A stretch of DNA of 64,000 nucleotides, from assembly GCA_964016885.1 (NCBI GenBank), contig OZ024744.1, positions 36,580,001 to 36,644,000 of the forward strand, given 5' to 3'. This DNA is from Eledone cirrhosa. Lineage: Eukaryota. Position 1 is the stretch's first letter; each line of letters begins with the position of its first letter. Position numbers and translations under genes: made by a program. The notes below the pieces were generated by a model. That model did not search any database, was not told the DNA's origin, and saw nothing but the letters and a program-made list of their open reading frames with translations. Below are positions 10,150-58,066 of the stretch, in pieces.

Positions 10150-10620
10150 TAAAATTGGTGCTCTGAAATAGCTATATATATATGAATGTATATATAGTGT
10201 ATTTTGCAATACACTGTATGCTTAATTAAAAGCATTTCGAAGACCTTATGCTATTGTTTTAGAGTAGTGACAGACTCACTTACTTTAATTTTCAGCAAAC
10301 AGGGGAGATAAAGATGACAGGGCCCTTTTTCGCATTTATTGATGCTTATCAAAGCTAACTACTCCTCCTGTTTGCTGAAATCATGGATGTTTGGTTCTTA
10401 TAGAATTCTAGTAAATAATCAGGAACTGATTATACAGATCGGTTGCCGGTCAAGCAGAAATAAATGCGAAACAGGGCCCTGTCAGCTTTATCTCCCCTGT
10501 TTGCTGAAAATTAAAGTAAGTGAGTTTGTCACTACTCTAAAACAATAGCATAAGGTCCTCTAAATGCTTTTTATTAAGCATACAGTGTATTGCAAAATAC
10601 ACTATATATACATTCATATA
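10150..10620. mobile_element. Foldback insertion in (TA)n (family E) with HHR at 10312-10356 (-)
   Basis: Arms ~10175-10340 and ~10459-10620 are reverse complements. Motif agct TTGATAA gcat-caataa-atgc GAAA (c)agggccctGTC agct. Confidence 0.8.
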
Positions 10621-10728
10621 TATATATATATATATACATATATATGAATGTATATATAGTGTATATATATATATATATATATATATATATATATATATAT
10701 ATATATATATATATATATATATATATAT

Positions 10729-10932
10729 GAAAAAGTATGACCCCGACGGCAGAGCTCAAGCTGTTTCAACGGTTATTTCTGGACTCATAATATTCCAGAG
10801 AAATAGCCGTCGAAAAGGCTTGACCTCTGCCGTCGGGGTCATACTTTTTCCTATTTCCCACTCTACTACCCTTAGTATTGAGTACTCTGGTGCGTTATGG
10901 TCCATCTGGTTCCTTACGAGAATTCCTTTGTT
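10729..10932 (+). mobile_element. Family D palindromic mini-element
   Basis: Same hairpin and tail as 9276-9488. Confidence 0.9.
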
Positions 10933-10949
10933 ATATATATATATATATA

Positions 10950-12715
10950 ATGAAAAAGTAAAGAATAACATGGTCAACAGTACAAAAAGGGTTTTATTTA
11001 CATGATTAACAATTGTTTCATTGATTAGGTATGTCTAAAGGCCGCTAATCACTCGAAGTTGTGTCACTCGACCTTAAATAAAATGAATGCCTAATCAAGT
11101 CATCGGAATAACTGAATAATTTACACATGGTGTTTATACAATGGAGAATTTAAATATCAACATCAATAATAAAGAAAGAAAATAAAAAATAAAAATAAAA
11201 ATAAAAATAAAAATAAAAATAAAAATAAAAATAAAAATAAAAATAAAAATAAAAATAAAAATAAAAATAAAAATAAAAATAAAAATAAAAATAAAAATAA
11301 AAATAAAAATAAAAATAAAAATAAAAATAAAAATAAAAATAAAAATAAAAATAAAAATAAAAAGAAAAATAAAAAGAAAAAGAAAAAGAAAAAGAAAAAG
11401 AAAAAGAAAAAGAAAAAATAATAGTAAATAAGTTAGAATGAAGATGATAAAAAAATAAGTAAAAAAATATATATGTGAAAACATGAACATAATACGGTTG
11501 GTGATAATAGTGGTGGTGTTGGTGGTGGTGGTAGGGCTTAAAGTTATAGTGGTGTGTAAGTATAAAGATGTGATGAGGGTATAAATACTATTAATATGAA
11601 AATAAATATCAAATATATACATATGTATTGGTTAAATCACAGAGGGTTAAAATAGGAAGAAAGAATATAATGATAAATTACAGATAAAAGATAAAATTAA
11701 TAAATTAGAAAATAGGTGAAAGGTGAAGAGATACAGGATAGGATACAAGGGAAGAGGTGAAATAGCTTTAGGGGGAGAGAGTGAAAGATAGGTTAGGAGG
11801 TTTATGATGTTGATTTAGTGATTAGTTGGTCTGTTGACAGTTAATAATAGTGGGATAGAATGTAGTTATTATAATAGACTCCGGGTGGTTCAGTAACTAC
11901 ATTCTATCCCACTATTATTAACTGTCAACAGACCAACTAATCACTAAATCAACATCATAAACCTCCTAACCTATCTTTCACTCTCTCCCCCTAAAGCTAT
12001 TTCACCTCTTCCCTTGTATCCTATCCTGTATCTCTTCACCTTTCACCTATTTTCTAATTTATTAATTTTATCTTTTATCTGTAATTTATCATTATATTCT
12101 TTCTTCCTATTTTAACCCTCTGTGATTTAACCAATACATATGTATATATTTGATATTTATTTTCATATTAATAGTATTTATACCCTCATCACATCTTTAT
12201 ACTTACACACCACTATAACTTTAAGCCCTACCACCACCACCAACACCACCACTATTATCAACAACCGTATTATGTTCATATGTTTTCACATATATATTCT
12301 TTTACTTATTTTTTTATCATCTTCATTCTAACTTATTTACTATTATTTTTTCTTTTTCTTTTTCTTTTTCTTTTTCTTTTTCTTTTTCTTTTTCTTTCCT
12401 TATTATTGATGTTGATATTTAAATTCTCCATTGTATACATACAAACACCATGTGTATATTATTCAGTTATTCCGATGATTTGATTAGGCATACACTGTAT
12501 TAAGGTCGAGTGATACAACTTCGAGTGATTAGCAGCCTTTAGACATACCTAATCAATAAAACAATTGTTAATCCTGTAAATAAACCCTTTCTGTACTGTT
12601 GACCATGTCATTCTTCACTCTTTCACTATTATTACTCCAAGAATGACCTGCATAGGAATTACCGCGAACTCGCTACCTCTATCTGGATTACCTGTAAGGA
12701 TAATTTGTTATCCCA
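10950..12715 (+). mobile_element. Large near-palindromic PLE-type foldback (family F) with tail ~12627-12715
   Basis: Left arm 10950-11870 and right arm 11893-12626 are reverse complements around a ~25-bp spacer. (AAAAAT)n is expanded only in the left arm. Long-stem-II HHR motifs at 11004-11110 (-) and 12468-12573 (+). Confidence 0.9.
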
Positions 12716-12750
12716 TATATATATATATATATATATATATATATATATAT

Positions 12751-12945
12751 AGGAAAAAGTTTAAACCCGACGGCAGAGCTCCATCCGTTTCGACGGCTAT
12801 TTCTGGACGTCCAGAAATAGCCGTCGAAACGCTTGAGCTCTGCCGTTAGGGTTAAACCTTTTCCCATTACCCACTCTACAACCCTAAGTATTGAGTACTC
12901 TGGTGCGTTATGGTCCATCTTGTTCCTTACCATACTTTCTTCGTT
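12751..12945 (+). mobile_element. Family D palindromic mini-element
   Basis: Perfect central palindrome gtttcgacggctatttctggacgtccagaaatagccgtcgaaac plus the same tail. Confidence 0.9.
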
Positions 12946-13220
12946 ATATATATATATATATATATATATATATATATATATATATATATATATATATATA
13001 TATATATATATATATATATATATATATATATATATAGTATATATATATTTAGGTTTGTTGGGTTACCACTGGATAGAACTGGTCATTTAGTATAGTCAAC
13101 CTCGATGTAATATTATGGAGAGCACCCGTCTTCGTTTGTGTAGTTGGTGGTGCGAGTACGGAGTTAATTATTATAAAATAACAGGAGGCTGGACTAGTGT
13201 AATTCCTTAAAAGGTTTATT

Positions 13221-55439: not shown

Positions 55440-55600
55440 TCTTCGACAAACCTACATTTGGCGCGAAACCAGTTCGCGCTAAAATCACATTAAACATTCA
55501 CATGACTTCTACCGACCAATCAAAATTGTTTTGACTACAAGAATTTTTGCAACACGAATTGGCGCGAAATTTATAGTGCTTATTCACGTGACATTCAATA
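55440..55600. promoter_or_regulatory. Candidate Pol II promoter with E2F, CCAAT and E-box motifs
   Basis: ttggcgcgaaa at 55458 and 55559, ttcgcgc at 55473, gaccaatca at 55514 and tcacgtga at 55584, in non-repetitive-looking sequence. Confidence 0.45.
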
Positions 55601-56319
55601 ACCAAACAAATCTTAATACCTTCCAAGCCACTTTTTTCACATAAAATAGGAAGAATTTCAAAAACTGATCATTAGAGCAAAAATCACGAGCATTCTATCT
55701 CAAAATTATTTTTGAAAAGCATGAAAAATGCGCAACCGGTAAAAACTTAAAACTAAACCTGAATACTAACTAATACATATTACTAATTTATACTTATTCC
55801 TAATTAAACTATTTTTCACTGGGAAAAATTTGTCAGCATTTTCTTTTCCTTTTTACTAATATATATATATATATATATATATATATATATATATATATAT
55901 ATATATATATATATATATATATATATATATATATATATATATATATGTATATATATATACATGTATGTATATATATTTATATATATATGTGTGTATATAT
56001 ATATATATATATGTATATATATATATGTATATATATATGTATATATATATATGTATATATATATATGTATATATGTATATATATACATTTTTATATATAT
56101 ATATATATATATATATATATATATATATATATATATATATATATATATATATATATATATATATATTTATATATATAAATGTATATATATATATATATAC
56201 ACATATATATATCTGTATATTTATATACATTTATATATATATATATAGTATTAAGGATACTATTTATGGTTATGTATATACTAAAACTTTTTATAGTTAT
56301 ATATATTTTAAACCCTAAA

Positions 56320-56945
56320 CAGTGAAAGACGGTAATTTATTACTACATTATTACCAGTAAGATAAATAGCTCCATGTAATAACATCAGTTGTTCTACAGA
56401 GCAGTTATATAGAAATCACATGAATCAAAGTTCTGTTCAAACCATTTATTATCTTACAATTGTTTCGTCCAAACCGAGGTTTGGAGTCTTCGGAGCAATT
56501 TTTCAATGATTGTTTACATACACTCTTGCTTACCCGCTTAAAGTGCTCGTATTGCATATAACACCTTGCCGCACAATAATCTTATATAAATAAGACACAC
56601 GTGCATGCCCCACGTGTAACTATTGCATGCACTAACTACTTCAACTGACTAACAAACTATCCTCTTGCATTATCTTCGTAAACTGCCGATGTTGTATTTT
56701 AACTTCAATTTTGTTTTAACATGATTTTAATTTTTGAATTTAAATTGCCATGCAAAAATATTATAATGGATGTCACCCTACTGTGCATCGATATATACAT
56801 ATGTATCTGTATGTCTCTTCTGTTGGAAAGGAGGTCATGTATCTAAACAATCATTGAAAAATTGCTCCGAAGACTCCAAACCTCGGTTTGGACGAAACAA
56901 TTGTAAGCTAATAAATGGTTTGAACAGAACTTTGATTCATGTAAT
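56320..56945 (-). mobile_element. PLE-type foldback (family R): arms ~56418-56520 / 56838-56943, HHR at 56864-56908 (+) and 56452-56496 (-)
   Basis: gct CCGAAGA c-tccaaac-ctcg-gtttgga-c GAAA caattg TA agc. Confidence 0.85.
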
Positions 56946-57033
56946 TTATATATATATATATATATATATATATATATATATATATATATATATATATATA
57001 TATATATATATAAATATATATATATATATATAT

Positions 57034-57940
57034 TGTTGTAGTCTCCTTCATTCTCAGCCCCACACTCATCGACACAGTCTCAACCTCCTGCATCAAATCC
57101 TCTGCCTCCTTCACTGTATTTGCCACCAAAACTATGTCGTCGACAAATTCAGCAGCCGATATCGCCTTAACTCTTCTGCTCTGAGTCGGTGCTACAGTAA
57201 AGTCCTGCTCGTTTCCCCAGTGGAAGGTGCATACAATAGTCCACTACGATGATAAAAAGGTAGAAACCCAATGTATCTCCCTGGAGCACTCCAGCCAGTA
57301 TCTAGTAGAGAATGTTGAGAAGCCAGAGGGGATCACTAATGTAGGCGGGAAGCCGCTAGAATTGGTTGATGACTTCCTGTATTTGGGAGCAAAGATTGAG
57401 AATACGGAAGATGATGTGGTTGAGAGGAAGAGCAAATCCTGGGCAGCGTGCCACAGCTTGAGATCATTGTGGAAGTCGGACCTTCGTAAAGACCTGAAAA
57501 TCCGCCTCTTCATTGCTGTAGTGCAGTCTGTGCTGCTGTACGGATCTGAGACTTGGACACTAACCAAGAAACTCGCTCAGATAGTGGATGGGTGCTACAC
57601 GAGAATGATGAGGATGGCTCTGAACATTAATCAGTATACACTGAGGATGAAAAACTCAGAGCTGTGTGGGAGCCTCCCAAAAGTCAGCTCAAAAGTGACA
57701 CAGAGAAGACTGAGATTAGCTGGACATGCTCACCTACATCCAGAGTTGACATTGCACTCAGTGCTGCTGTGGGAGCCCCTGCATTGACACACTGGAAGAG
57801 GTAGACCGAGGTTAACATATGTTGATGCCCTAAGGACAGACACTGATCTGTTGGAGACGCAGGACAAGGCAGCGATAATGAGTGACAGAGACCGCTTTAG
57901 AGAACTCGTCCATGGATCTCGGGAATTTTACCCGCCCTAG
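57034..57940 (+). mobile_element. RTE/RTE-X-like LINE 3' part with 5' inversion (57034-57300 is minus strand)
   Basis: GVLQGDT..EFVDDIVL..GLRM on (-) continues as YLVEN..FLYLG..SVLLYGSETW..RRLRLAGH on (+). Confidence 0.88.
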
Positions 57941-57975
57941 AAAAAAAAATATATATATATATGAAAAGGTTCAGG

Positions 57976-58066
57976 ACCCCGACGGCTGAGCTCCGGCCGT
58001 TTCGACAGCTAGCTCCGACCTAAGCCACCAGTATTAGCGGGAATCTAGCTGAAATTATCAAGGGGT
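57976..58066 (-). ncRNA. Complete family D HHR (U3-A8 core, 5-bp stem III, extended stem II)
   Basis: acccc TTGATAA ttt-cagctag...ctagctg-tc GAAA cggc-cggagctca-gccG TC ggggt. Confidence 0.78.

Follow-up and report, generated by a model that had tools for sequence, protein, structure and literature searches.

Three hammerhead motifs in a 64-kb stretch of the Eledone cirrhosa genome (contig OZ024744.1, positions 36,580,001-36,644,000; assembly size 3.0 Gb), hereafter the window, carry the core pair U3-A8 in place of C3-G8. They belong to three repeat families, called E, F′ and D, in which U3-A8 is the family state and not decay. In our best explanation, the three motifs are probably genomic copies of type I hammerheads whose source elements already had U3-A8, and selection on the source RNAs likely kept positions 3 and 8 Watson-Crick paired for self-cleavage.

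On the minus strand the heptamers TTGATAA (10352-10346), TTGAAAA (51127-51121) and TTGATAA (58061-58055) are present as the first-pass annotation of this DNA had reported, and each stands where CUGANGA belongs, after a 4-bp helix I strand and before helix II, GAAA, helix III, the UH site and the helix I partner. The features are as follows.

10290-10380, minus strand: family E type I hammerhead, distal helix I 10380-10367/10303-10290, proximal helix I 10356-10353/10315-10312
10346-10352, minus strand: E core UUGAUAA, U3 = 10352, A8 = 10347
10345-10342/10335-10332, minus strand: family E helix II, with a CAAUAA loop
10331-10328, minus strand: family E GAAA, then palindromic helix III (10328-10317), predicted cut after C17 (10316)
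10140-10600, minus strand: incomplete E unit (non-coding, 319 nt when full); a second incomplete copy, inverted, at 10452-10549 (plus strand) has no 5′ core strand
51031-51131, minus strand: family F′ type I hammerhead, helix I 51131-51128/51034-51031, long irregular helix II
51121-51127, minus strand: F′ core UUGAAAA, U3 = 51127, A8 = 51122
51046-51043, minus strand: family F′ GAAA, then helix III AC-GGUC-GU (51043-51036), predicted cut after A17 (51035)
50840-51830, minus strand: putative 5′-truncated 3′ end of a Hydra-type Penelope-like element (F′), delimited by coverage by family loci
57977-58065, minus strand: family D type I hammerhead, helix I 58065-58062/57980-57977, helix II 58051-58045/58012-58006
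58055-58061, minus strand: D core UUGAUAA, U3 = 58061, A8 = 58056
58003-58000, minus strand: family D GAAA, then 5-bp helix III (58000-57982), predicted cut after C17 (57981)
57960-58660, minus strand: putative 5′-truncated 3′ end of a Hydra-type Penelope-like element (D), with no open reading frame (ORF) left in the window

The core boxes N3-UGA-N-N8-A, GAAA and UH follow in this order in all three motifs with positions 3 and 8 Watson-Crick paired. Helices I, II and III, with helix I open, are complete in family-typical copies, and the window E and D copies each break a core-adjacent pair. The G10.1-C11.1 pair is present in families E and D; F′ has U10.1·U11.1 in its place, a helix I of 4 bp, all A-U, and a self-complementary helix III with two G·U pairs. 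By itself the heptamer is not uncommon (TTGANAA occurs 89 times in the window), in contrast to the whole architecture (see the 1-Mb scan below). The strict descriptor calls none of the three window copies, whose recognition comes through their families.

Family states were read with patterns in which positions 3 and 8 were N, by eye, on the first 100 matches in genome order, which is the scope of all counts out of 100 below. The patterns carry family-specific flanks, so the match totals are lower bounds. BLAST first looks gave 2,010, 2,375 and 1,440 candidate copies for the three families searched. At positions 3-8, family E (462 matches) had 98 U-A, 1 U-U and 1 U-G, family F′ (253 matches) 95 U-A, 3 U-C, 1 U-G and 1 C-A, and family D (147 matches) 95 U-A, 3 U-G, 1 U-C and 1 A-A, with no C-G in any of the three. 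The family majorities hence read UUGANAA and not CUGANGA, which excludes random decay, as the first-pass annotation had maintained. The window F′ copy agrees with its family majority.

The covariation of positions 3 and 8 extends across families. We wrote a hammerhead descriptor with both positions free (threshold, score >=12) and applied it to 100 stretches of 10 kb (1 Mb), comprising 88 genome-wide stretches and 12 beside the window; the control was the same sequence reversed. There were 89 motifs in the sample and 0 in the control: 63 C-G (11 of them from one tandem array), 20 U-A, 3 U-G, 2 C-A and 1 U-U. Clustering blind to positions 3 and 8 gave 43 clusters, and BLAST extension 556 distinct copies. 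Among the 35 clusters with at least two copies, 25 were C-G, 7 U-A, 1 U-G and 1 a tie of U-G and C-G. The remaining one, a U/U cluster of 89 members, was dropped as a false positive, as its lone descriptor match spans a TA microsatellite and the similarity of the other members is confined to the 5′ portion of a common repeat. The eight singleton clusters were 5 C-G, 1 C-A, 1 U-G and 1 U-A. Covariation on 33 families gave a Fisher p=1.9e-6, which is indicative only, because the clustered sample includes loci fetched for E, D, F′ and the related family F, and because families are related, so that independence is overstated.

One large U-A cluster, number 19, shows mixed states among close copies. 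In 100 of its 1,643 matches there were 93 U-A, 2 C-G, 2 C-A, 1 U-G, 1 U-U and 1 C-U, and across its subfamilies position 7 and helix/loop II vary while 3-8 stays paired. Both C-G copies belong to a single subfamily with short stems, in which U-A and C-A copies occur as well (e.g. L029:2384, L033:2524, C1:98346258 and C1:98346645), possibly a switch caught in progress. The U-A clusters 6, 10, 17 and 19 have no ORF link shared between loci and are therefore absent from the protein trees described below.

The relatives of F′ named in the first-pass annotation do have C3 and G8.

11004-11110, minus strand: C3-G8 relative of F′, core CCGAUGA 11106-11100, U4C
41779-41890, plus strand: C3-G8 relative of F′ (family F), core CUGAUGU 41783-41789, A9U; inverted partner core at 41772 (minus strand)

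Both carry a further core change that had passed unremarked, U4C at 11.0 kb and A9U at 41.8 kb. The 11.0-kb family (155 matches) has 88 C-G and no U-A, and the 41.8-kb family (151 matches) 92 C-G and no U-A. The U4C subfamily has two sites of the F lineage in the window, at 11106-11100 (minus) and 12472-12478 (plus). U4C is reported to be a slow but viable natural variant (PMC3088659), and no mention of A9U was found in PMC6155905, the one review consulted on it. In the A9U copies examined, G12 had no compensating change. The kinship of F′ with the C3-G8 F families is real: its RNA aligns with these relatives (z 3.0-4.7), not with D or E, and its linked protein is 54% identical to those of F and 37% to those of a sister family of D. 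Between F′ and F in the window, the motifs are weakly alike overall, and the boxed-core changes shared by the families are at 3 and 8 only, plus the free position 7.

Protein trees separate F′ from D. The first was built from 135-residue C-terminal regions (29 rows), and the second from the reverse transcriptase (RT) core with 15 of 17 rows kept, as fam20 and one outgroup aligned too little; neither holds reference Hydra proteins, and many lineages on both have no assigned hammerhead. In the C-terminal tree F′ lies inside a 100/99 clade with three C-G lineages, and the D group forms a separate 99/99 clade. The RT-core tree agrees on this separation, and a single U-A clade for F′ and D was rejected by both (p-AU 3.7e-4 for the C-terminal region and 9.8e-8 for the RT core). 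Because CUGANGA is the core in every one of the 26 Hydra rows in the published File S2 (PMC8557442), C-G is likely ancestral and F′ and D would represent two gains; on these alignments, U3-A8 appears to have arisen separately in F′ and D. The proposal of three independent cores is therefore borne out for F′ and D. Family E has no linked ORF to place on a tree, and its separate origin is one that we infer from unrelated sequence and build: E, D and F′ motifs have no sequence kinship (z 0.9, 0.3 and 0.3), and in E helix II has 4 bp, helix I is long and interrupted, and helix III contains a 12-nt palindrome.

We assign the F′ and D motifs, by their linked ORFs, to the 3′ repeats of Hydra-type Penelope-like elements. 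The F′ motif lies ~580 nt downstream of the ORF end on the same strand, a continuity common to 23-24 loci. The D motif lies downstream of a related ORF by ~1,140 nt in L312 and 709 nt in L315, with a matching distance at C4:162154710-162156337, and in the D-sister family frames of 786, 795 and 770 codons are open. These ORFs encode an RT with DKT and YRDD, a CxCX5C linker and a C-terminal YIG motif. Pfam (15 ORFs, then 5) and a PDB sequence search did not recognise the Hydra-type ORFs, so their Penelope-like status rests on these motifs, a profile match and look-alikes in the Atlas. The profile of six Hydra-type ORFs matches classical Penelope-type ORFs of the same genome (E 4e-15 to 5e-4) and not the two RTs of long interspersed nuclear element (LINE) type in the window. 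The Atlas look-alikes have GIY-YIG, RVT_1 and PF26215 in some members. As for Penelope-like 3′ repeats, 5′-truncated tandem and inverted arrangements are present. Membership of Naiad was considered and ruled out by the C-terminal position of the endonuclease-like region and the motif DKT. The Hydra-type C-terminus gave 60,338 first-look candidates in a protein search, and the clade seems very abundant in this genome.

In L311 of the D-sister family two identical U3-A8 motifs lie 3,543 nt apart in one array. This locus (G000:C1:91472801-91477400), with its neighbours to 91488995, is a tandem Hydra-type array with a period of ~3,543 nt, frames of 784-786 codons and identical U3-A8 motifs, and it looks recently active from the sequence. 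Its protein has RWR where the Hydra clade has RWK.

Family E is of another kind. Its unit is non-coding, A+T-rich and 319 nt long, in short tandems with one canonical-shaped type I hammerhead per unit; 319 nt is the commonest spacing of E motifs (21 cases), and the loop I/loop II layout is canonical as judged by eye. Beyond the unit, microsatellite aside, nothing is common to more than a few of 40 loci. A Penelope-type fragment upstream in 7 of 67 members came only from L175/L050, a duplicated locus, and L124, and this ORF link was rejected as nesting. In unit length (319 nt, within the 150-450 nt of that class), non-coding tandem form, hammerhead type and helix build, family E fits the non-LTR retrozymes (PMC7229834), on the evidence of genomic copies.

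After insertion the copies evidently decay neutrally. In 32 distinct D copies, CpG columns apart, deviation from the column majority was 8/256 in the core, 33/927 in helices and 34/1095 in loops; the core thus deviates like the loops, with no sign of constraint after insertion. The E and F′ copies are too alike for this comparison. Counts over copies were therefore discarded as a test of selection: each copy inherits the state of its source, and family D has no core-specific constraint. Of the claim that these are selected variants, the family-level covariation stands; the counts of copies mirror inheritance from source elements and not selection on each copy. All three window copies are solitary fragments with no same-strand partner nearby, E and D with extra lesions, and they are likely inert or, as predicted from their sequences, poor cleavers.

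The chemistry offers a plausible route. The general acid is proposed to be the 2′-OH of nucleotide 8 (PMC6155905), and positions 3 and 8 pair, with U3-A8 active in vitro (PMC3088659). A source element would acquire the transitions C>U and G>A by way of an intermediate with U-G or C-A; if source elements need the 3-8 pair, the second transition would restore pairing, and later copies would inherit U3-A8. Tandem transcripts may be cut after GUC or GUA into unit-length RNA, then circularised and reverse transcribed, and cutting of multimeric transcripts into units by hammerheads has been proposed in PMC4209133. The helix III segments are self-complementary, with dimer self-pairing of -24.3 (E), -5.8 (F′) and -27.7 kcal/mol (D), and F′ has no stable hairpin. 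F′ would need two copies to form helix III, and D, and probably E, could fold as monomers too.

Several observations weigh against our best explanation. In the window E copy the 15.2-16.2 pair and a helix I pair are lost, through 15.2 C>A (10327) and a mismatch (10314) relative to the family majority; in the D copy 10.1 G>T (58054) removes the G10.1-C11.1 pair, and loop 2 has a 5-nt deletion. The E lesions and the 10.1 change were also unremarked in the first-pass annotation. Single-copy minimum-energy folds gave only parts of the hammerhead fold, never a complete one, and were not used as support. To these are added the missing ORF link of family E, the non-recognition of the Hydra-type ORFs by Pfam and PDB, the overstated independence behind the Fisher p, and the two-copy families, of which one is U-G and one split. 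Both changes (C>U and G>A) go towards A+T, and the genome is A+T-rich. Finally, U4C is found in 72/100 copies of the 11.0-kb family, with U4 in 26/100 that may partly be CpG decay back to U, and A9U (CUGAUGU) in 20/100 of the 41.8-kb family. Because these uncompensated cores are subfamily traits and were amplified too, amplified cores are not always optimal, and family fixation alone is no proof of activity. Together with the neutral decay of copies, they indicate that selection acts on source elements, and not strictly.

The same cores speak for drift, that is, for cleavage being dispensable or weakly selected and for A+T-biased drift having fixed U3-A8 in source elements, as with U4C and A9U. 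The U10.1·U11.1 apposition and all A-U 4-bp helix I of F′ agree with it, as does the spread of Naiad elements without canonical hammerheads (PMC8557442). However, if the two sites drifted independently, U-G and C-A families should be numerous, and we saw 1 U-G, 0 C-A and 1 tie against 7 U-A and 25 C-G; the confinement of shared F′-F boxed-core changes to 3 and 8 (plus position 7) also speaks against it, and U4C is a known tolerated variant (PMC3088659). We therefore regard drift as unlikely. Somewhat less likely again is an advantage of U3-A8 through slower or tuned cleavage that spares longer multimeric RNA as template, so that the switches were adaptive. At least two origins among Hydra-type elements here, against CUGANGA in all 26 published Hydra rows (25 families; PMC8557442), the 7 U-A families and the spread of other likely attenuating changes would accord with such tuning, but C-G families outnumber U-A ones, and a tolerated compensatory change with mutation bias explains the pattern with no benefit at all.

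A single origin of U3-A8, passed between families by exchange of 3′ repeats, might be entertained since Penelope-like insertions cluster and nest and since E has no place on a protein tree. The lack of kinship among the E, D and F′ motifs, compared with the alignment of F′ with the F motifs, and their different helix II and III builds make this very improbable. The idea that the cores are fortuitous heptamers, or CUGANGA decayed at random in old copies, would find some room in the frequency of TTGANAA in the window and in the other lesions of the E and D copies; with C3-G8 in 0/300 listed family matches and an empty reversed control, we give it almost no credence. The preferred explanation thus remains compensated switches in the source elements.

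A fourth U3-A8 hammerhead is present in the window, where the first-pass annotation had listed three.

63715-63855, minus strand: fourth U3-A8 hammerhead (cluster 17), core UUGAGAA 63850-63844, long helix III, damaged beside the cut site

Cluster 17 has U-A in 7/7 copies, and a related singleton (L269:2527) has U-G. The window has at least 17 hammerhead-family cores, among them eight type I cores with the canonical C3-G8, from five other families, at 6071 (plus), 16910 (minus), 17807 (plus), 45419 (minus), 46974 (minus), 47402 (minus), 49147 (minus) and 50520 (minus); a damaged core lies at 18489 (minus). An Rfam scan of the window (E<=1) gave 149 matches, only microsatellite and hairpin noise, with 0 to hammerhead families. 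Because the canonical motifs were missed too, this result is uninformative on class, and the search gap that had been suggested is not peculiar to U3-A8. Elsewhere, at L240:281-3381 (minus), a 310-nt unit with a canonical C3-G8 hammerhead occurs in eleven tandem copies; this is a second retrozyme-like family. At ~89 intact-core hammerheads per Mb, extrapolation gives a few hundred thousand genome-wide.

Among other elements in the window, LINE-type remnants lie at 27692-33233 (plus), 23403-27022 (minus) and 34588-37679 (minus); two long frames match RVT_1, one of them also an endonuclease domain. Further Penelope-like ORF remnants lie at 39422-41042 (plus), 47590-48721 (minus) and 52307-53160 (plus), the last with a Pfam GIY-YIG match, and no hammerhead was found for the 39.4-41.0-kb family. 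A long near-perfect inverted repeat at 11804-11958, which in the Rfam scan matches a plant microRNA model below the cut-off, is probably a foldback repeat. The 177-codon frame at 14332-14862 (plus) resembles, by eye, a DNA-transposon remnant, with no Pfam match.

Previous publications have described the U3-A8 variant, its chemistry and its occurrence in Penelope-like elements, contrary to the novelty first supposed, and E, F′ and D are further examples. Perreault et al. (2011) described natural C3-G8 to U3-A8 covariation, active in vitro (PMC3088659); the pair and the swap are the same, with several examples there and 20/89 motifs in 1 Mb here. Cervera and De la Pena (2014) found U3-A8 minimal hammerheads in the Cercyon Penelope-like elements of Schistosoma mansoni, with ~1,300 matches to a U3-A8 descriptor (PMC4209133). 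Our motifs resemble those in core covariation, type I topology, location in a Penelope-like 3′ repeat, palindromic helix III and mostly solitary truncated copies, and differ in that at least 7 families occur in one genome, two tied to Hydra-type ORFs, helices II and III are longer, and separate origins were tested on trees. With the Hydra clade of Craig et al. (2021; PMC8557442) our elements share DKT, the CxCX5C linker, the C-terminal GIY-YIG-like region, (TA)n surroundings and the 3′ hammerhead. The U·U at 10.1/11.1 of F′ is frequent in published Hydra motifs (PMC8557442) and is also found in axolotl HHR_Amex2. In contrast to that clade as published, D and F′ have UUGANAA in place of CUGANGA, unit length here is 3.5 kb against generally under 3 kb, and the L311 protein has RWR for RWK. 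Family E resembles non-LTR retrozymes (PMC7229834; bioRxiv 10.64898/2026.07.22.740005) as a non-coding, A+T-rich tandem unit with one type I hammerhead, and differs in its U3-A8 core and in being known from DNA, while retrozymes give circular RNA. Our literature searches turned up neither U3-A8 cores in retrozymes or elements of the Hydra clade nor origins counted on a tree, although the 2014 supplements and Lunse 2017 may hold cases; what is mildly new is only that the switch recurred within a single genome.

The prevalence of U3-A8 is useful but will be unsurprising to the specialist: descriptors restricted to CUGANGA would lose about one-fifth of the motifs of this genome (20/89 in the sample). 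More speculatively, and we would not count on it, the genome may act as a natural mutational scan of the hammerhead core, with a few hundred thousand motifs in dozens of families, C3-G8 to U3-A8 switching independently at least 3 times (F′, the D group and E, with cluster 19 in progress) and U4C and A9U amplified, in which Penelope-like elements repeatedly tune their ribozyme down. If so, the tandem-arrayed intact U3-A8 element of the D-sister family would make the role of cleavage in Penelope transposition directly testable. Within one genome, the trees indicate that C3-G8 was swapped as a pair and more than once, and this is indirect evidence that the motifs are under selection for an active fold in transposing elements.

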